In this document: piece by piece, positions 2,248 through 8,519 of the stretch
Numbering within the stretch: position 1 is the stretch's first letter
Layout: each line of letters starts with the position of its first letter
Sequence record: PZ583740.1
DNA length: 27,851 nucleotides
From: a phage
Direction: 5' to 3' (one strand)
Made by a program: the position numbers and the translations under genes
The notes under the pieces: generated by a model
Database searches by the model: none
What the model was told of the DNA's origin: nothing
The model's input: the letters and a program-made list of their open reading frames with translations, nothing else

Positions 2248-3071
2248 GTATTTTTACATTTATCAATGAATCTGCAGATAAACCAGGTCCGAAACCCAGT
2301 AAATCAGAACAACAATGGGTTGAAATAGGGGTTGAATTTTATACAGCAAAAGAAAAGGGAATGACCTCGAAGAAGTTTGCTGAAGAGAAAGGAATCAACT
2401 ATTCGACCTTTACCAAAAGCATGTCAAGATATCATTCGAGAATTCAGACTGCTTATAAAGTATCCAAGCTCAAAAAGAAACCTGCCGGTAAACTTACGAA
2501 GGCTGAACGTCAGCTGATAATGGTGAATAGCTTTAGAAAGAGCATAAGAGATAAGATTGCTAACGAAGGCGCTGCAAGCAACACCAAATCTGCCAGATGG
2601 TTCGCTGAGACAATTAAGAAATCAGTTCGGGGCCACGTAACGGCTAAACCTCAACCGGGTAAGATTTATGCTTATATCTATGATGCAAAGCATAAGGATA
2701 CTCTTCCGTACTGGGACAAATATCCGTTAATCATTTATCTTGGGCTAGGTAAGCACAATTTGATGTATGGTTTGAACTTGCACTATATTCCACCGAAGGC
2801 ACGTCAAGAGTTCCTTGAGGAACTTCTTAAGCAATATGCCAATACTCCTACGATTACGAACAAGACTCATCTGAAGATTGATTGGTCAAAAGTGAAGGGA
2901 TTTAAAGGGGCTGACCAGATGATTAAAGCATATATACCTGGCAATATAAAAGGTACTATCACTGAAATCAAGCCCAGCGACTGGGCAAATGTGGTATTAC
3001 TCCCCCTTCAGCAGTTTTTTTCAAAAGGCAAAAGATTTTCTTCACAGAAAGTATGGAGAAATTCACTTTGA
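2244..3071 (+). CDS. 2: DNA end-protector protein gp2
   Basis: Position between genes 4 and 3 as in T4; about 275 aa from ATG at 2244 (AAGGA upstream). Sequence recall for gp2 is weak, so the call rests largely on synteny and size. Confidence 0.65.
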
Positions 3072-3727
3072 ATTATCAGTTTATATATTCATCGTTAATT
3101 GAAAGGGCCCGTAACAGGGTCCTGATTTCATATAAAGAATCTCATCACATCATTCCGAAATGTATGGGTGGTTCAAATGCTCCGGATAACTTAGTCGATT
3201 TGACTCCCGAGGAACATTATGTAGCCCATCAACTATTGGTTAAAATATATCCTACAAATCCAGGTTTAAGTTTTGCTGCCACATCTATGAGTCAGTCAAG
3301 CAAGTATTTGAAACGCAATAATAAATTATTTGGCTGGTTAAGACGCAGACACGCTGACAATATTTCTAAAAGCCAAACCGGTAAAGTTTACTTTAATAAT
3401 GGTGTCAAATCGATAAAACTATTTCCATGGGAAGATGTTCCGGATGGGTTTGTCAAAGGAAGACATTACAGCCCAACCAAGGGTACAAAACATTCTCGCA
3501 ATAATGGACATTTTAAAAATAAAGAGATTCAGGACGAATTGAGAAAGCGCCGGTGGGAAAAAGATAGGCAAGAAATGTGTAAAAACTTCGGAGTTGATAC
3601 CATCGAGCAAGCTCGAGAGTTGGTCCTAGCATATAAAAAGGAATTGCATCCTCGATACTGGGTAAAGCCAATGTTGGAACGTTATCCGTTTATGACTAAG
3701 CTAAGACTTAACACATTAATAAAATAA
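3053..3727 (+). CDS. HNH homing endonuclease (free-standing)
   Basis: 224 aa with HNH motif [29 protein letters not shown]; inserted between genes 2 and 3, overlapping the gp2 3' end by 19 nt. Confidence 0.8.
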
Positions 3728-3812: not shown

Positions 3813-4412
3813 ATGTCAGGTTTATATAATCAAACTAACACGACTAACTTTATATTAGAGGTGAGCGATTCAAACCTCACACAGACCTTTAAACTCAACG
3901 TTCAAGACGTTACCCTCCCAGGAGTTCACATTCCAGTGACGGATGTCCCTGGGGGAACACAAGGTATAAATCGCTCCAGTCTTCCTGGTAGTACAATAGA
4001 ATTCGACCCGCTGATTGTTAACTTTCTGTGTGACAAAGACCTAAGAGCGTGGCTTGACATCTATAAATGGATGCTCTCGCTTAACAACTACATCACACAC
4101 GAATCAAAAGCATGGAATCCGAAGGGTCGTCCCGAAGCGGTCACGCTTCACATCTTAGATAACAACAAGGACAAAATTGTCATGTCAATCCATTACTATG
4201 GAGCATGGCCGTCCGACCTGTCAGAGATTCAGTATTCATATAAAGAAGATTCTGACCCGGCTATCATTGCAACAGCAACTTTTAACTTTAAGTCTTTTGC
4301 TGTAGAAATTGATGGTATAATAATAGAAGGTAGACCACAGATTGATAGTAATGCAGCAATGCAACAGGAAATCAGGTCTAAGTCAATGCATCCATCTATG
4401 AGAAACGTATGA
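3813..4412 (+). CDS. 3: Tail completion / sheath stabilizer protein gp3 (assigned mainly by position)
   Basis: 199 aa ORF between genes 2 and 1, stop overlaps gene 1 start (ATGA); RBS AAGGTG upstream. Confidence 0.55.
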   Translation: MSGLYNQTNTTNFILEVSDSNLTQTFKLNVQDVTLPGVHIPVTDVPGGTQGINRSSLPGSTIEFDPLIVNFLCDKDLRAWLDIYKWMLSLNNYITHESKAWNPKGRPEAVTLHILDNNKDKIVMSIHYYGAWPSDLSEIQYSYKEDSDPAIIATATFNFKSFAVEIDGIIIEGRPQIDSNAAMQQEIRSKSMHPSMRNV

Positions 4413-5085
4413 AATTAATTGCGATTGTGGGTAAAAAACGCAGTGGTAAAGATACGACTGCTGATTATGTTATTAGTCAAAACGGAACAAAGTGGCAGCT
4501 TGCTGGTCCGATTAAAGAAGCGCTTTATAAAGCGTGGATTCGTCAAGACCTGCCACACAATTTGACCCTGGAAAATTTTGATGGACAAGGTTACGACCGT
4601 GAAAAAACCTTAATAATGAACAACACCGAAGCTTATATTCTTCTGGTTGATGCTCTTGAATGGTTGAAACAACAATACAATCTTGACCTTCCGAATCCAG
4701 ATATGGTTCGTAAAATCATTGAATTTCACACACTAAATAATGTTGAGCCCTGGACAGTTAGACGTTTCATGCAGACCCTTGGAACTGATATTGTTTGTAC
4801 AGAGTTCGACAGCATGTTTTGGATTAAAACTTTTGCATGCGACTATCTTGACAACCTCTATTCTGGATATAAATATTACGTTGTCCCAGATGTTCGTCAA
4901 AAGAATGAACTTGATTCGCTTCGGGCGATGGGTGCTACAATAATCTTTGTAGAACGCGATGAAGCAAATCATTCTACTGATACACACATTACGGAAGCTG
5001 GACTTCCACCACTAGCTAGTGACATTGTTATTAAAAACGATGGCACACTCGAAGAACTTTTTGATAAAATTAATAAGGTAATATA

Positions 5086-5086
<1 letters not shown>
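4409..5086 (+). CDS. 1: Deoxynucleoside monophosphate kinase gp1
   Basis: 225 aa with P-loop GKKRSGKDTTAD; MKLIAIVGKKRSGKDTTADYVIS...LAGPIKEAL matches T4 gp1. Confidence 0.85.
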
Positions 5087-5776
<690 letters not shown>

Positions 5777-5777
<1 letters not shown>

Positions 5778-5806
5778 TGTACAAATGAGTGTAGGTGCAG
5801 TATTAT
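5777..5806 (+). promoter_or_regulatory. Sigma70/T4-early-like promoter (GTGTAC, 18 nt spacer, TATTAT) overlapping a 7-bp-stem palindrome
   Basis: GTGTAC at 5777-5782, TATTAT at 5801-5806; inverted repeat GTGTAGG (5789-5795) / CCTACAC (5810-5816); GGAG RBS then ATG at 5838. Confidence 0.35.
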
Positions 5807-5837
5807 GTTCCTACACCAATGAACAAACGGAGTTAAT

Positions 5838-6170
5838 ATGAACATCAAAACTTACAACGAGTTTTTAGCCGAATCCGCCATCAATGAGACCAAATCAATT
5901 GATGATAGTGAAGGCTCTCTGAAATTTGGTTTAACCAAAAACGCAGATGGTGTTTTCTTTCAGATTGGTAATGAACGTTTTCAAACGTCCAAATATTCCA
6001 AAGCTGCAGTTGAAGCTGTCCTGAAATCTGGTGGCAAGTGGAAAGGCAAAGAAGGTACTAAAGAAATTGGTATCGCTGTTGACGGTGGTATGGCTTATTT
6101 TAAAATTGGCGATGAACAATTTATTATGTCTGCTCGCGGACGTAAAGAACTGGCAAAACTTTATAAATAA
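5838..6170 (+). CDS. Internal protein (IP)-like, capsid-targeted small protein A
   Basis: 110 aa; N-terminus MNIKTYNEFLAE-S resembles the T4 capsid-targeting sequence MKTYQEFIAE with an L-x-E prohead-protease site; GGAG RBS. Confidence 0.7.
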   Translation: MNIKTYNEFLAESAINETKSIDDSEGSLKFGLTKNADGVFFQIGNERFQTSKYSKAAVEAVLKSGGKWKGKEGTKEIGIAVDGGMAYFKIGDEQFIMSARGRKELAKLYK

Positions 6171-6178
6171 GGTTTCTT

Positions 6179-6451
6179 ATGAAAACTTTCAATGAATTTT
6201 TCAACGAGTCACAATTGAATGAAGAAGTAAAAATTAGTAAAGCAGTCAAATCTATGATTGACAATATCAATCACCTGTATAGCATTGACTTGACTGACCA
6301 TATAACAATTGGTAACAAACGCAACTTTTTCGCGTTTGACATTTCAGAACTTGACCAGAACCAAATTAATAACATTGAGCGTTTTGCCAATGACAAGGGT
6401 CTCCGCCATGAGACAGCTGGTTATAAAAAATATGCAATTTATCTTAAATAA
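6179..6451 (+). CDS. Internal protein (IP)-like, capsid-targeted small protein B
   Basis: 90 aa; N-terminus MKTFNEFFNE-S; tightly linked to ORF A via conserved junction AAATAAGGTTTCTTATGAAAAC. Confidence 0.65.
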   Translation: MKTFNEFFNESQLNEEVKISKAVKSMIDNINHLYSIDLTDHITIGNKRNFFAFDISELDQNQINNIERFANDKGLRHETAGYKKYAIYLK

Positions 6452-6459
6452 GGCTTCAA

Positions 6460-6702
6460 ATGAAAACTTATCAAACATTTATAACAGAATCTTCCCATAG
6501 TATGGAAGTTAAACTTGGTCAAGCCCTTGCTGAAGCAGAGCGCCTGTTTGCACGTATCAAAGAACTTGCCGATTCTGTAGATGCATCATCTTTTAAAGGC
6601 GACCAGGGTAAAGTTAAAGCTCTCCTTGCTCTTTGTTCAGACGCGGGTGAAATTGCTAAGAACGGCACCAAGATGAAAAAACGCCTAGAAGATTTAAAAT
6701 AA
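6460..6702 (+). CDS. Internal protein (IP)-like, capsid-targeted small protein C
   Basis: 80 aa; N-terminus MKTYQTFITE-S; junction AAATAAGGCTTCAAATGAAAAC. Confidence 0.65.
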   Translation: MKTYQTFITESSHSMEVKLGQALAEAERLFARIKELADSVDASSFKGDQGKVKALLALCSDAGEIAKNGTKMKKRLEDLK

Positions 6703-6732
6703 GTGTACATGATGGGATAACTGTAGTATGAT
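6703..6732 (+). promoter_or_regulatory. Sigma70/T4-early-like promoter (GTGTAC, 18 nt spacer, TATGAT) overlapping palindrome TGGGATAA/TTATCCCA
   Basis: GTGTAC 6703-6708, TATGAT 6727-6732; 8-bp inverted repeat 6713-6720 / 6732-6739. Confidence 0.35.
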
Positions 6733-6757
6733 TATCCCATCAACTACTGGAGACCAC

Positions 6758-7012
6758 ATGAAAACTTATCAAGAATTTATTACTGAATCTGCAAATGCAA
6801 AAGTTGAGTTTGCTTATGTTGGTTCGCCGCGTGGCAGTTTTTCCAATGAGGAATTCCGTCGTTCACTGGACAATTTCATGCAGTTAAGTGCTGAAGTATC
6901 GCATGATGGTCGTTATGACATCGTTACTATTAGCGGTTCTGAAGACCTTATCAAAAAGTGGTACAAGCAGAAAGATGTTGAGATGCGTTACTATCGTATC
7001 CCTAAAAAATAA
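6758..7012 (+). CDS. Internal protein (IP)-like, capsid-targeted small protein D
   Basis: Track ORF 6728..7012 starts at an upstream codon; ATG at 6758 has a GGAG RBS and gives MKTYQEFITE-S (84 aa). Confidence 0.65.
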   Translation: MKTYQEFITESANAKVEFAYVGSPRGSFSNEEFRRSLDNFMQLSAEVSHDGRYDIVTISGSEDLIKKWYKQKDVEMRYYRIPKK

Positions 7013-7041
7013 GTGTACTTTTAAATGGGATAACGTATAAT
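7013..7041 (+). promoter_or_regulatory. Sigma70/T4-early-like promoter (GTGTAC, 17 nt spacer, TATAAT) overlapping palindrome TGGGATAA/TTATCCCA
   Basis: GTGTAC 7013-7018, TATAAT 7036-7041; inverted repeat 7026-7033 / 7041-7048; about 80 percent identical to the unit at 6700-6760. Confidence 0.4.
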
Positions 7042-7070
7042 TATCCCATCAACTACTGAGGGCCAAAAAA

Positions 7071-7292
7071 ATGAAAACGTATCAAGAATTTATTAACGAA
7101 GCTAAAATGCATGACGAATTGCCGATTCAATCTAAAACTTTTGATGGTACACTGAAGGATTTTAAAAAGTTGCCAAATGATAAATTGGCAAAACTTACAG
7201 GTTCTGTATCTGAAACAGGTGGTAAGGTTACTTTCTCTGCCCGTGGTATTGTCAACCTTAAAAAACTTTTGAAAGCCGTTGGTGCTGAATAA
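7071..7292 (+). CDS. Internal protein (IP)-like, capsid-targeted small protein E
   Basis: 73 aa; N-terminus MKTYQEFINE-A; GAGGG RBS. Confidence 0.65.
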   Translation: MKTYQEFINEAKMHDELPIQSKTFDGTLKDFKKLPNDKLAKLTGSVSETGGKVTFSARGIVNLKKLLKAVGAE

Positions 7293-7350
7293 AACAGTTA
7301 CTGGTCTAGTATATCATAACCTAGACCTATCAAAAAGTGAGGAGAATAAA

Positions 7351-7536
7351 ATGAAACGTTGTGAATTAATTAGAAATGTTACTGCCTTTGTTGCTGTTAC
7401 CACTTTTGGTTTTAGCATGTTTGCTGGCTTTATGTTGAATATGCTTTCAACTTCTGAGAATATAATCTCTTTAGTAGTTGCATTTTTAATTGGTTCAATC
7501 TCTTTCGTTATGGATAAAATCTCTAAAGGTGAGTAA
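7351..7536 (+). CDS. Small predicted membrane protein (two hydrophobic helices), function unknown
   Basis: ATG at 7351 preceded by strong GAGGAG RBS; 61 aa with hydrophobic stretches [23 protein letters not shown] and [17 protein letters not shown]. Track ORF 7279..7536 starts at an upstream TTG. Confidence 0.5.
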
Positions 7537-7550
7537 AATGTATAAAGTGT

Positions 7551-8519
7551 ATGCGGATTATCAGAAAGATTCGCCTGCAAGGCTTCACCAGCGGTGAATG
7601 GGTAGCTCGCGAGAAGATTCATGGTACCAACTTTTCATTAATCATTGAACAAGACAATGTGACATGTGCGAAACGCACTGGACCTATCCTGCCTGCAGAA
7701 GATTTCTATGGTTATGAAATTGTATTAAAGAATTATGCTGATTCTATTAAATCTGTGCAGAAACTTTTGCAGGATATTAATTACCAGGCATACCAGATTT
7801 ATGGTGAGTTTGCCGGGGCAGGTATCCAGAAGAATGTGGATTACGGTGATAAAGATTTTTATGTATTTGATATCCGCGTTACTAAAGAAGATGGTTTTGA
7901 ATCCGTCCTGACTGACACCTTGATGGAAGCATTCTGTATTATCCATAAGTTTAAGGTTGCACCGCGCCTGGCTACAGGTAGTTTTGAAGAATTAATTAAG
8001 CTCCCTAATGACCTGGATTCTGTTGTCCCTGATTACAATTTTACAGTGGATAACGCGGGTTTGACTACAGCAAATACCACTGATTTTGTTGCAAAGGTGG
8101 AAGGTAAAGTATTCACTGCCGAAGGATTTGTATTAAAACCTGATGTTCCTGCATGGTTACCTAACGGCGAGCGTGTAGCGATTAAATGTAAGAACTCTAA
8201 ATTCAGTGAAAAGAAAAAGTCTGATAAGCCTATTAAGGCTGCAGTGGTTCTGAGCCAAAATGATATGGATTTACTGTGGAATTTCACTGATTATGTGACT
8301 GTTAACCGTATCAACAATGTTATCAGTAAAATTGGGGAAGTAACACCGAAGGATTTTGGAAAGGTAATGGGGTTAACAGTCCAAGATATTCTGGAAGAAG
8401 CGGGGCGCGAAGGTCTTGAATTGTCCCTGACGGAAAATCCTGTTGAAGTTAAAAAGCAACTTATTGTAAATGTAAGAGAAACATTAAGACATGTTTGGAT
8501 TGCATTAGTTAGTGAATAA
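7551..8519 (+). CDS. rnlB: RNA ligase 2 (Rnl2 / gp24.1)
   Basis: 322 aa with nucleotidyltransferase motif [20 protein letters not shown] and strong overall similarity to T4 Rnl2; true 5' end uncertain (ATG with good RBS at 7538 is in another frame). Confidence 0.85.

Follow-up and report, generated by a model that had tools for sequence, protein, structure and literature searches.

An internal-protein gene array in a Gaprivervirus phage varies cassette by cassette, with breakpoints in repeats of intergenic unit and leader

The region at ca. 5775-7350 of the analyzed DNA (27,851 nucleotides of a phage, record PZ583740.1; hereafter "the window") is an internal-protein (IP) array of the ipI type; the phage is a Gaprivervirus, i.e. 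a VR7/SP18-like T4-type coliphage. When the window was compared with 19 related Gaprivervirus genomes (20 in all), the arrays were found to differ by whole genes, and the breakpoints lay inside repeats made up of an intergenic unit and the leader of the gene that follows it. Exchange of cassettes at these unit-plus-leader repeats by the phage's homologous recombination is probably the process at work in this locus. Gain, loss, and swapping of IP genes at repeats have already been described for T-even phages (Repoila 1994; Arbiol 2010). The present case adds a natural series within one genus (12 array types, with repeats that range from 95% identity over 88 bp down to microhomology); the mechanism proposed in 1994 and 2010 is left unchanged.

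The locus and its genes

All features described here lie on the + strand. The array is bracketed on the left by gene 57B (5322-5777), which encodes an Acb1 anti-CBASS phosphodiesterase (Pfam Acb1, E = 1.7e-59), and on the right by a Trna.4 homologue (7351-7536), which encodes a 61-aa membrane protein (phrog_1692). Both borders are conserved. The name 57B is given by the annotation of VR7, VR26, and SP18, and Trna.4 by that of VR7, VR26, and RB15; notes in the RB15 record give the same two borders for its IP genes. In every annotated locus fetched, the neighbors were dNMP kinase, 57A, 57B/Acb1, Trna.4, and Trna.3, and no recombinase gene was annotated in the locus. The closest relative of the window phage was RZ (98.4%). 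An Rfam scan of 5600-7700 (E <= 1) returned no match, and the hairpins described below do not correspond to a curated RNA family. An odd join between 7564 and 7565 had no match in exact-match scans of IMG/VR and JGI metagenome contigs.

The array contains five ORFs in the order A, Ip9, Ip5, Ip6-like, and Ip8-like, and a capsid-targeting leader opens all five. ORF B (6179-6451; 90 aa; MKTFNEFFNE/S, the slash marking the leader end) is Ip9: it matched the internal head protein family phrog_7673 (E = 2.5e-56), was 79-83% identical in amino-acid sequence to Ip9 of RB15 and KIT06, and has counterparts labeled ip9 in the annotation of VR7 and VR26. ORF C (6460-6702; 80 aa; MKTYQTFITE/S) is Ip5 (phrog_3499, internal head protein, E = 6.6e-41; 86% aa identity to RB15 Ip5). 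ORF D (6758-7012; 84 aa; MKTYQEFITE/S) matched the internal virion protein family phrog_8111 (E = 1.9e-13) and is a divergent allele of Ip6; the Ip6 allele itself, designated d, occurs in relatives. An in-frame ATG at 6728, inside the -10 element of the C/D spacer, gives rise to the 94-aa version of D annotated in RZ. ORF E (7071-7292; 73 aa; MKTYQEFINE/A) is Ip8-like (phrog_8765, internal virion protein, E = 1.3e-20), with 79.5% aa identity to Ip8 of RB15 and 78% to a Klebsiella phage IP. The Ip9, Ip5, and Ip8 proteins of RB15 were thus 79-86% identical to B, C, and E, respectively. Homology to named IPs was found for B-E, all of which fell into PHROG internal head or virion families; ORF A (5838-6170; 110 aa; MNIKTYNEFLAE/S), present in 20/20 genomes, matched only phrog_3966 (unknown function). 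A search of Pfam found no family for A-D and a sub-threshold match to DUF7412 for E.

N-termini resembling the capsid-targeting sequence MKTYQEFIAE were present in C, D, E, and B. That of A is two residues longer, and its capsid-targeting-like character makes ORF A a candidate for an unrecognized internal protein. The motif at which the gp21 prohead protease cleaves at the leader end is (L/I)-x-E. Putative motifs of this type close the leaders of C and D (ITE/S), E (INE/A), and A (LAE/S); in B (FNE/S), an F takes the place of the L/I.

The first-pass annotation of this DNA had proposed a conserved 30-nt leader at each 5' end. This description suits C, D, and E, whose leaders were mutually alike at 24-27/30 bases; it is looser for B (19-22/30 against those three), and the leader of A, which is longer by two codons, has diverged further. 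Two variants of the leader occur on D; one has the same protein sequence as that of E. The 33-nt leader DNA matched IP genes in 426 phage records, including T2 and JS98, most of them at 94-97% nucleotide identity.

The leader could be shared if the genes were tandem paralogues that had been duplicated in place and had then diverged, the conserved ends being the slow parts of one ancestral gene. The N-terminal leader is indeed common to all of the genes, homology between D and d can be detected (34% aa identity, E = 2e-7), and nearly the same unit follows X, C, Y, and D (X and Y being cassettes present in relatives). However, the leader-less bodies had no significant similarity to one another save for D/d, and bodies A-E fall into different PHROG families. 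In other genera the bodies are found singly or reordered (Ip5-Ip9-Ip7-Ip8 in RB15; E alone in Klebsiella phages). An origin by tandem duplication was rejected on the grounds that the bodies are unrelated, and it is accorded next to no probability.

Long spacers: a predicted promoter and a hairpin

The recurring unit of ca. 55 nt reads as a T4-type early promoter, consisting of GTGTAC, 17-18 nt, and TATNAT. The -10 element lies in the loop of a 7-11-bp hairpin, and a Shine-Dalgarno sequence then follows (CAACTACTGGAG as the ribosome-binding site). In the 57B/A unit (5775-5837), GTGTAC (5777-5782), an 18-nt spacer, and TATTAT (5801-5806) are followed by a GGAG Shine-Dalgarno sequence, and the hairpin arms GTGTAGG (5789-5795) and CCTACAC (5810-5816) surround the -10 element. 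The promoter scan matched at 5778-5806, and the unit was conserved in 20/20 genomes. Its RNA fold had a free energy of -16.3 kcal/mol (z = -2.46), and the 7-bp Watson-Crick stem around the -10 element had p = 0.011. The C/D unit (6700-6757) has GTGTAC at 6703-6708, an 18-nt spacer, TATGAT at 6727-6732, and then the CAACTACTGGAG Shine-Dalgarno region; the arms TGATGGGATAA (6710-6720) and TTATCCCATCA (6732-6742) lie on either side of the -10 element. Here the promoter scan matched at 6704-6732, the fold was -17.3 kcal/mol (z = -2.6), and the stem was 11 bp (p < 0.0002). In relatives, a unit of this type also trails X, C, Y, D, and d. In the D/E unit (7010-7070), GTGTAC (7013-7018) is separated by 17 nt from TATAAT (7036-7041), and the arms ATGGGATAA (7025-7033) and TTATCCCAT (7041-7049) form a 9-bp stem (p = 0.0012), with a fold z-score of only -0.78. 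The E/Trna.4 spacer (7290-7350) has arms GGTCTAG (7303-7309) and CTAGACC (7321-7327), a 7-bp stem (p = 0.016), and a terminal GAGGAGAATAAAATG; no convincing -35/-10 pair was found in it.

Thus, stems of 7-11 Watson-Crick pairs were present in 4/4 long spacers (p <= 0.016 each), with arms that vary between units and genera. The test was made per unit against shuffles; the distance of the arms from the -10 element varies between units, so fixed-column covariation was unsuitable. By free energy, the D/E and E/Trna.4 hairpins were not significantly below shuffles (z = -0.78 and -1.19), and the fold z-scores were convincing for 57B/A and C/D alone. In RB15, KIT06, and one Klebsiella phage, the layout of the unit was alike and the arm sequences were different.

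The predicted early promoter (GTGTAC, 17-18 nt, and TATTAT, TATGAT, or TATAAT) occurs in 3/4 long spacers. In T4, early promoters have GTTTAC as their -35 element, at -36 to -31 (PMC1524935); GTGTAC differs from it by a single mismatch. In a sigma-70 scan, the region was not enriched in promoter-like sites compared to shuffles (10 vs. 7.6), so that the grounds for predicting promoters are the T4-type consensus, a spacing that stays constant, and conservation.

The C/D and D/E junctions had been described as sharing a unit of roughly 60 bp at about 80% identity, which was fair but slightly generous: the spacers themselves agree at 47/65 positions (72%, with gaps), and at 74/95 (78%) when the 30-nt leader is included. 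The core TTATCCCATCAACTACTG is exact in both copies. As a separate observation, a terminator-like sequence is seen in TH44 and EAWsc9, whose alternative X/C spacer reads GGGGATAATTATCCCCTTTTT.

Short junctions: A/B and B/C

The A/B junction (6165-6186), AAATAAGGTTTCTTATGAAAAC, comprises a Lys codon, TAA, an AAGG Shine-Dalgarno sequence, an 8-nt spacer, and ATGAAAAC; this architecture was invariant in 20 genomes. The B/C junction (6446-6467), AAATAAGGCTTCAAATGAAAAC, has an 8-nt spacer of the A/B type and forms the left edge of the array's variable part; relatives have cassette X after B at this position. The near-identity of the two junctions that had been noted earlier was borne out (19/22 bases). 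With up to three mismatches allowed, the 22-base junction occurred at two sites only in the window and at none in 100 shuffles; exact runs were no longer than 10 nt. Both are stop/Shine-Dalgarno/start spacers, which would couple translation within one transcript. The span 6150-6480, to which the conserved junctions had been assigned, takes in ORF B and these two 8-nt spacers; the 60-bp units fall outside it, in a locus that extends over ca. 5775-7350.

The sequence TATAAATA at 6162-6169 agrees exactly with the late-promoter consensus of T4 (that of PMC1524935); it overlaps the last codons of A and ends 10 nt 5' of the B ATG. This predicted late-promoter-like match was kept in 20/20 genomes. 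The window contains 10 matches to the consensus (2.4 expected), all co-oriented with the genes.

The A/B junction was the same in function and position in 20/20 genomes, and genes A and B were likewise invariant; A/B is therefore not an exchange point in this genus. These junctions lend themselves to the view that junction likeness stems only from constraint on promoter, ribosome-binding, and targeting signals, that the cassettes change by illegitimate or microhomology-mediated events, and that the repeats have no special role in recombination. The Lys codon, stop, Shine-Dalgarno sequence, and ATGAAAAC fully account for A/B and B/C, A/B was never a boundary in the 20 genomes, and X and E are bordered by just 8-14 nt of common sequence. 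For the locus as a whole, this explanation is unlikely in light of the cassette comparisons below, and of a leader that is kept at 94-97% nucleotide identity across genera while the bodies are unrelated.

Cassette variation across the genus

Alignment to relatives had been suggested as the check on whether ORF bodies occur as discrete cassettes. They do: the 20 genomes fall into 12 array types, with bodies present or absent as whole units and breaks in the unit or leader. A and B are invariant, and X, C, Y, D/d, and E are variable; C was found in 10/20 genomes and E in only 4/20. The order X<C<Y<D<E is fixed, and change within the genus consists of insertion, deletion, and replacement, not reordering, which was encountered only in comparison to the Tequatrovirus RB15. 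Divergence spread evenly over the array would have spoken against cassettes; it was instead mosaic by cassette. For example, P479 (array ABXY) is 99.0% identical to the window in the left flank, and MN01, with the same array as the window, is 92.2% identical in D and 99.5% in E.

All of the megablast breakpoints fell in a junction unit or leader, which argues against functional constraint as the sole cause of the likeness. In window coordinates they lie at 6749 (Shine-Dalgarno sequence), 6467-6473 and 7080 (leader start), and 6792-6804 (leader end). Matches stop at 6467-6473 in 11 of the listed records, all of which have X instead. One position, with identical units on both sides, is taken by D in some relatives and by d in others.

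The clearest cases were those of TH15, VR7, and TH22, in which a variable cassette (Y or C) lies between 87-88-bp repeats of 92-95% identity that include exact runs of 67-73 bp. TH54 has the array of TH15 without Y, and VR25 that of TH22 without C. The cassettes lost in these sisters are exactly the ones between long repeats, an outcome that functional constraint does not account for. Nor does it account for the unit variants GGAGACAACATG and GGAGCTACTAATG, which are reassorted relative to both adjoining cassettes.

Short homologous sequence had been claimed to flank every ORF body. In the window, this holds unevenly for D (78% over 95 nt, longest exact run 19), B (74% over 43 nt, run 10), and C (longest run 15), and it fails for A (39%) and E (53%, run 6), which are essentially without a flanking repeat. 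The repeats are degenerate in the window, and a usable pair surrounds D only. The X and E indels in relatives were bordered by 8-14 nt of microhomology and not by a long repeat; a long repeat is thus not needed for all events.

All of the presence/absence patterns could come from repeated deletion of a full ABXCYDE ancestor. Exchange between genomes is required only by the D/d replacement and the mosaic identities.

Proposed mechanism

Each IP would be loaded into the prohead by its leader of 10-12 residues (MKTYQEFIxE), which the prohead protease would then remove. Unit and leader together form a direct repeat of up to ca. 88 bp to the left and right of a cassette. Homologous recombination by the phage itself, either within one genome or between co-infecting relatives, probably crosses over in these repeats, and whole genes would be deleted, inserted, or replaced as a result. 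Each survivor would still have its promoter, ribosome-binding site, and targeting signal. In this scheme, we infer homologous recombination as the mechanism, as well as the activity of the promoters and the role of the hairpins. The first-pass annotation had likewise proposed that bodies are exchanged by homologous recombination between phages. The cassette-wise variation and the breakpoints in repeats support that proposal in part; it is limited by A/B, which is no exchange point in this genus, by the fixed order of the cassettes within the genus, and by X and E, which are bordered by microhomology only.

The hairpins could themselves be structure-specific recombination sites, either attC-like or in the form of cruciforms cut by endonuclease VII, that serve a dedicated pathway. 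An inverted repeat does occur at one place in every long spacer, with arms that differ by unit and genus. Furthermore, Arbiol 2010 (PMC2839356) speculates on a specific DNA-binding protein for the stems of PeSLs (promoter-early stem-loops) and reports that PeSL mini-circles were detected in RB49 and phi1. However, breakpoints were also located outside the hairpin (6749; 6467-6473; 7080; 6792-6804), no recombinase is annotated in the annotated loci fetched, and the stems of RB15 are weak. A dedicated pathway is very improbable on this evidence. A broader version is also unlikely, though less so: the hairpin around the -10 element may have been selected as a structure-specific element, and ORF A would then be an unrecognized IP. 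Such an element might be a cruciform or single-stranded-DNA hairpin that attracts junction-resolving or strand-invasion machinery, or a switch that couples the promoter to upstream read-through. If this were true, the IP locus would amount to an integron-like cassette system that has no integrase and in which the hairpins set the rate of exchange.

Nearby homing endonucleases were also considered as the main agents of exchange, acting through double-strand-break repair and co-conversion, with the repeats marking tract ends. Two endonuclease-like ORFs are located 2-4 kb upstream (1519-2247 and 3053-3727) and are variably present in relatives, and in T4 the inheritance of the tRNA/ipI region is known to be biased by SegB, which lies close by (as cited in PMC4122927). 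On the other hand, array type does not follow the gp2/gp3 endonuclease, which is present in VR7, VR25, and P479 and absent from VR26, SP18, VR20, and P896, and the cassette contents of these groups overlap. Intragenomic losses of single cassettes between long repeats would also go unexplained, and there is scarcely any likelihood that homing is the main route. Homologous recombination at the unit-plus-leader repeats is retained as the preferred reading.

Comparison with known systems

Integron attC arrays resemble the IP array in having short unrelated ORFs, an imperfect inverted repeat after each, and content that varies between close relatives. Unlike integrons, each IP cassette has its own predicted promoter, and the breakpoints are not confined to the hairpin. 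No integrase or attI was annotated in the locus in the annotated loci fetched. The exchange of IP cassettes is best explained by general homologous recombination as opposed to the integron mode.

PeSLs are known from RB49/phi1, PST/T4, and nt-1/KVP40 (Arbiol 2010, PMC2839356; Comeau 2014, PMC4122927). Like the units, they are short repeats of promoter and stem-loop that border small non-essential genes in hyperplastic regions, and they have been proposed as patches of homology for the insertion, deletion, and replacement of cassettes. Their promoter has a sigma-70 consensus, whereas that of the units is predicted to be of the T4-early type: the -35 element is GTGTAC and not TTGACA, and the sigma-70 scan gave 9/12 for two units and missed the third. 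The PeSL stem-loop is G/C-rich (GGGG...CCCC) and lies apart from the promoter, and it has been shown to act as a transcription terminator. In the units, hairpin and promoter overlap, the loop end of the hairpin is A/T-rich, and no T-run follows; a terminator scan found no terminator in the spacers.

T4 Ip1, Ip2, and Ip3 resemble A-E in their N-terminal capsid-targeting sequence, small size, and variable loci, and Ip1-3 are non-essential. Internal proteins are injected along with the DNA. In T4, Ip1-3, the only three to have been studied to date, each inhibit a different GmrSD type IV restriction enzyme (PMC12373910; PMC3012670). It follows from injected proteins that each disarm a different GmrSD enzyme (PMC12373910) that a locus that swaps ready-to-express, ready-to-package genes of the anti-restriction type may be read as a host-range toolkit. 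The A-E bodies are mutually unrelated and belong to no Pfam family, and no function is transferable to them from Ip1-3. In practical terms, the series provides defined phage pairs with which recombination can be measured as a function of repeat quality, and a list of candidate anti-defense proteins (A, X, Y, D, and E).

The closest precedent is the T-even IP-locus system of Repoila, Tetart, Bouet, and Krisch (1994, EMBO J 13:4181), for which record Z35082.1 of phage RB15 served as the example. By the account in Arbiol 2010 (PMC2839356), Repoila 1994 saw PeSL-like elements, each consisting of a T4 early promoter and an AT-rich stem-loop, at two variable IP loci. Arbiol 2010 regards the IP-locus elements as analogues of PeSLs, not homologues, and proposes that they drive IP plasticity, a proposal repeated in Comeau 2014 (PMC4122927). 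The inference drawn for T-even phages, as these accounts present it, is like that drawn here, i.e. that the elements underlie IP plasticity. In the window, too, the elements adjoin IP genes that differ between related phages (12 types in 20 genomes). RB15 and the window have in common the slot between 57B and tRNA.4, the capsid-targeting leader, the Ip9, Ip5, and Ip8-like cassettes, and a spacer layout in which a -35 element, 18 nt, and a -10 element between inverted-repeat arms precede ATCAACTACTGAGGAG...ATG. They differ in the -35 element (GTGTAC/GTATAC in the window, GTTTAC in RB15), the -10 element (TATAAT-like vs. TACTAT), and the stems, which are longer and perfect (7-11 bp) in the window and weak or G-U rich in RB15. 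Ip9 is bordered by 8-nt spacers in the window and by full units in RB15, Ip9 precedes Ip5 in the window and follows it in RB15, and cassettes A, X, and Y are absent from the Ip genes of Z35082.1. Cross-genus dS, compared in order to tell recent transfer from vertical descent, was saturated for C; for B (ca. 1.0) and E (0.6-0.9) it lay below that of the flanks, which is no more than suggestive in short genes whose synonymous sites are near saturation.

Gene layout and identity of the locus

Megablast matches to window positions 5780-7340 and 1-25000 were Gaprivervirus genomes (VR7/SP18-like T4-type coliphages), the closest being vB_EcoM_RZ (98.4-98.5% identity), followed by vB_YenM_P8 (98.2%). 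On the + strand, gp4, gp2, gp3, gene 1 (dNMP kinase, 4409-5086), 57A (5086-5322) and 57B (5322-5777) precede five small ORFs, designated A-E, and Trna.4 (7351-7536), which encodes a small membrane protein, lies 3' of them. All five ORFs open with a capsid-targeting leader ending in (L/I/F)-x-E. ORF A (5838-6170, 110 aa) was assigned to a PHROG family of unknown function, B (6179-6451, 90 aa) and C (6460-6702, 80 aa) each to an "internal head protein" family, and D (6758-7012, 84 aa) and E (7071-7292, 73 aa) each to an "internal virion protein" family. For B, C and E, the counterparts in phage RB15 are Ip9, Ip5 and Ip8, respectively, at 79-86% protein identity; D represents a diverged Ip6 allele (34% identity, E = 2e-7). 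The PHROG families, the RB15 identities and the leaders together identify this as the ipI-type internal-protein (IP) locus.

The N-terminus of ORF A (MNIKTYNEFLAE, followed by S) is a capsid-targeting-like leader with two additional residues and an LxE cleavage motif. In public records the ORF is called hypothetical or, in EAWsc9, "profilin". It is an invariant member of the array in 20/20 genomes and has a 74%-identical DNA match in Edwardsiella phage PEi26; judged from its sequence, it may encode an internal protein that has gone unrecognised. For ORF D, the RZ annotation uses a 94-aa long form, extended by 6728-6757, that begins at an in-frame ATG within the -10 element TATGAT. The start at 6758, which is preceded by GGAG and followed by MKTYQEF, is plausibly the better one. 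The IP cassettes directly adjoin another counter-defence gene, as the product of 57B is Acb1, an anti-CBASS nuclease (Pfam, E = 1.7e-59).

Cassette arrays in Gaprivervirus

The 57B-Trna.4 interval was taken from 19 Gaprivervirus genomes and set against that of the window (20 in all). With X and Y denoting cassettes found in relatives and d an Ip6 allele that alternates with D, 12 array types were distinguished: ABCDE (window, P8, MN01, RZ), ABCD (UPEC07), ABCd (VR26, TH40), ABXCD (EAWsc9), ABXCd (TH22), ABXCYD (TH44), ABXYD (UPEC01, TH15), ABXYd (VR7, VR20, TH57), ABXD (TH54), ABXd (VR25), ABXY (P896, P479) and AB(x pseudogene)Y (SP18). Thus, whole ORF bodies were present or absent as cassettes, as the first-pass annotation had anticipated. 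A and B were constant in all 20 genomes, while X, C, Y, D/d and E came and went in a fixed order; the shuffling that had been proposed therefore does not extend to reordering within the genus. With their leaders removed, the ORF bodies showed no significant similarity to one another, D and d excepted.

A single unit of ca. 55 nt was found 3' of X, C, Y, D and d, irrespective of the next gene. The 3' end of X differs in TH44 and EAWsc9, where the X/C spacer carries a G/C stem and T-run (GGGGATAATTATCCCCTTTTT) resembling an intrinsic terminator in place of the promoter-hairpin unit; TH22 keeps the standard unit there. In SP18, cassette X (between B and Y) is a decayed pseudogene, recorded as a misc_feature with no intact ORF, and cassettes can therefore disappear through decay, not just by clean excision.

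Junction sequences

The similarity claimed for the C/D and D/E junctions was confirmed: the spacers are 72% identical (47/65, gapped), rising to 78% (74/95) with the leader, and they have an exact 18-mer in common (TTATCCCATCAACTACTG). The C, D and E leaders agree at 24-27 of 30 bases. Although the junctions are as previously described, the interval assigned to them (6150-6480) holds only B and two 8-nt spacers. The long spacers share one design, in which GTGTAC, 17-18 nt and TATTAT (57B/A), TATGAT (C/D) or TATAAT (D/E) are followed by CAACTACTGGAG and ATG; E/Trna.4 has no convincing -35/-10 pair. In T4 early promoters the -35 element, GTTTAC, occupies -36 to -31 (PMC1524935), which gives the same 18-nt spacing. 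Inverted-repeat arms flank the -10 hexamer on either side, and the perfect Watson-Crick stems have 7 (57B/A), 11 (C/D), 9 (D/E) and 7 (E/Trna.4) pairs (each p≤0.016 versus shuffled flanks); in free energy, only 57B/A (z = -2.5) and C/D (z = -2.6) stand out. No T-run was found 3' of the stems in the long spacers, a terminator scan of the spacers returned none, and they had no Rfam match. RB15 and KIT06 (both Tequatrovirus) and one Klebsiella phage have the same design with GTTTAC, 18 nt and TACTAT, but their hairpin arms are unlike those of the window and often weaker.

The A/B and B/C junctions are, as had been noted, nearly identical (19/22 bases), and no further window site was found at ≤3 mismatches (shuffles: 0/100). 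In both, a Lys codon and a stop are followed by AAGG, a short spacer and ATGAAAAC; these junctions would be translational-coupling spacers inside one transcript. Within A/B, at 6162-6169, lies an exact TATAAATA, the T4 late-promoter consensus (PMC1524935), which overlaps the last codons of A, ends 10 nt 5' of the B ATG and is kept in 20/20 genomes. The window has 10 copies (2.4 expected), all co-oriented with the genes. A late transcript beginning at this putative promoter would cover C-E and leave B with nearly no leader.

Breakpoints and divergence

Megablast matches ended at 6467-6473 (start of the C leader), 6749 (Shine-Dalgarno sequence of the C/D unit), 6792-6804 (end of the D leader) and 7080 (start of the E leader). 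On both sides of Y in TH15 and VR7, and of C in TH22, lie repeats 87-88 bp long that are 92-95% identical and include exact runs of 67-73 bp; the arrays of TH54 and VR25 look like the matching deletion products of cassettes so flanked. At the borders of X and E, the shared sequence is only 8-14 nt. Among the window's cassettes, D alone has a reasonable repeat pair; the window array should therefore be relatively stable, which fits the occurrence of ABCDE in four sampled genomes.

Divergence from the window was mosaic by cassette, not evenly spread. The left flank of P479 (ABXY) is 99.0% identical; MN01, with the window's own array, is 92.2% identical in D and 99.5% in E; and TH44 is 99.2% identical in D and 93.4% in C. 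Because of these mosaic identities and the replacement of D by d between identical units, exchange between diverged genomes, beyond deletion alone, is required.

Cassettes also occur singly outside the genus: A in an Edwardsiella phage, B in Tequatrovirus and Citrobacter phages, C in T2, AR1 and RB3, and E in Klebsiella phages. DNA identity to these copies is 77-83% for B, C and E versus 63-77% for flanking core genes; dS is below that of the flanks for B and E and saturated for C, and is only suggestive. The order in RB15 is 57B-Ip5-Ip9-Ip7-Ip8-tRNA.4, with Ip5/Ip9 reversed relative to the window.

Proposed mechanism and relation to published work

The unit and leader would together form a portable homology patch for crossovers. 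They would double as an expression and packaging signal, so that any crossover inside them would give a working gene. In Arbiol 2010 (PMC2839356), Singer 1982 is cited for <50 bp of homology sufficing in T4-type recombination. The homology patch is the best reading of the sequence comparisons; like it, promoter activity, the hairpin role and the recombination events are inferred. The earlier proposal of exchange at the junctions thus holds for unit plus leader but not for the A/B spacer, as A and B are constant.

According to Arbiol 2010, Repoila et al. 1994 described "PeSL-like sequences" (PeSL, promoter-early stem-loop) at the two variable T-even IP loci; these elements pair T4 early promoters and AT-rich, weaker stem-loops, are analogues, not homologues, of PeSLs, and are a possible cause of IP plasticity. 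Comeau 2014 says the same. The RB15 record, from the 1994 work, has the anatomy of the window. Given these accounts and that anatomy, the present finding is a rediscovery of an already known phenomenon. In the literature examined, no published account of it in Gaprivervirus was found. Gaprivervirus differs from the RB15 type in its -35 element (GTGTAC), in its longer, perfect stems, and in the joining of Ip9 to its neighbours by 8-nt spacers.

Other features of the window

A blunt join without microhomology was observed at 7564/7565. The sequence to its left is the opening 25 nt of the Trna.3 homologue; to its right, rnlB (RNA ligase 2) begins at about nt 55 and so is without its first ca. 18 codons. 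The two sides are 38.8 kb apart in RZ, and in the window the segment end precedes the segment start. Such an arrangement would be expected if a 38.8-kb segment had circularised or been duplicated in tandem, or if the end of a linear contig had been joined to its start. A 30-mer spanning the join was absent from IMG/VR and JGI metagenome contigs.

Two endonuclease-like ORFs break up the conserved gp4-gp2-gp3 block. A 242-aa ORF (1519-2247; phrog_681, endonuclease) between gp4 and gp2 is missing in VR26, SP18, VR20 and P896. The 224-aa homing endonuclease (3053-3727; phrog_655, MobB-like) between gp2 and gp3 is missing in the same four genomes and present in VR7, VR25 and P479.
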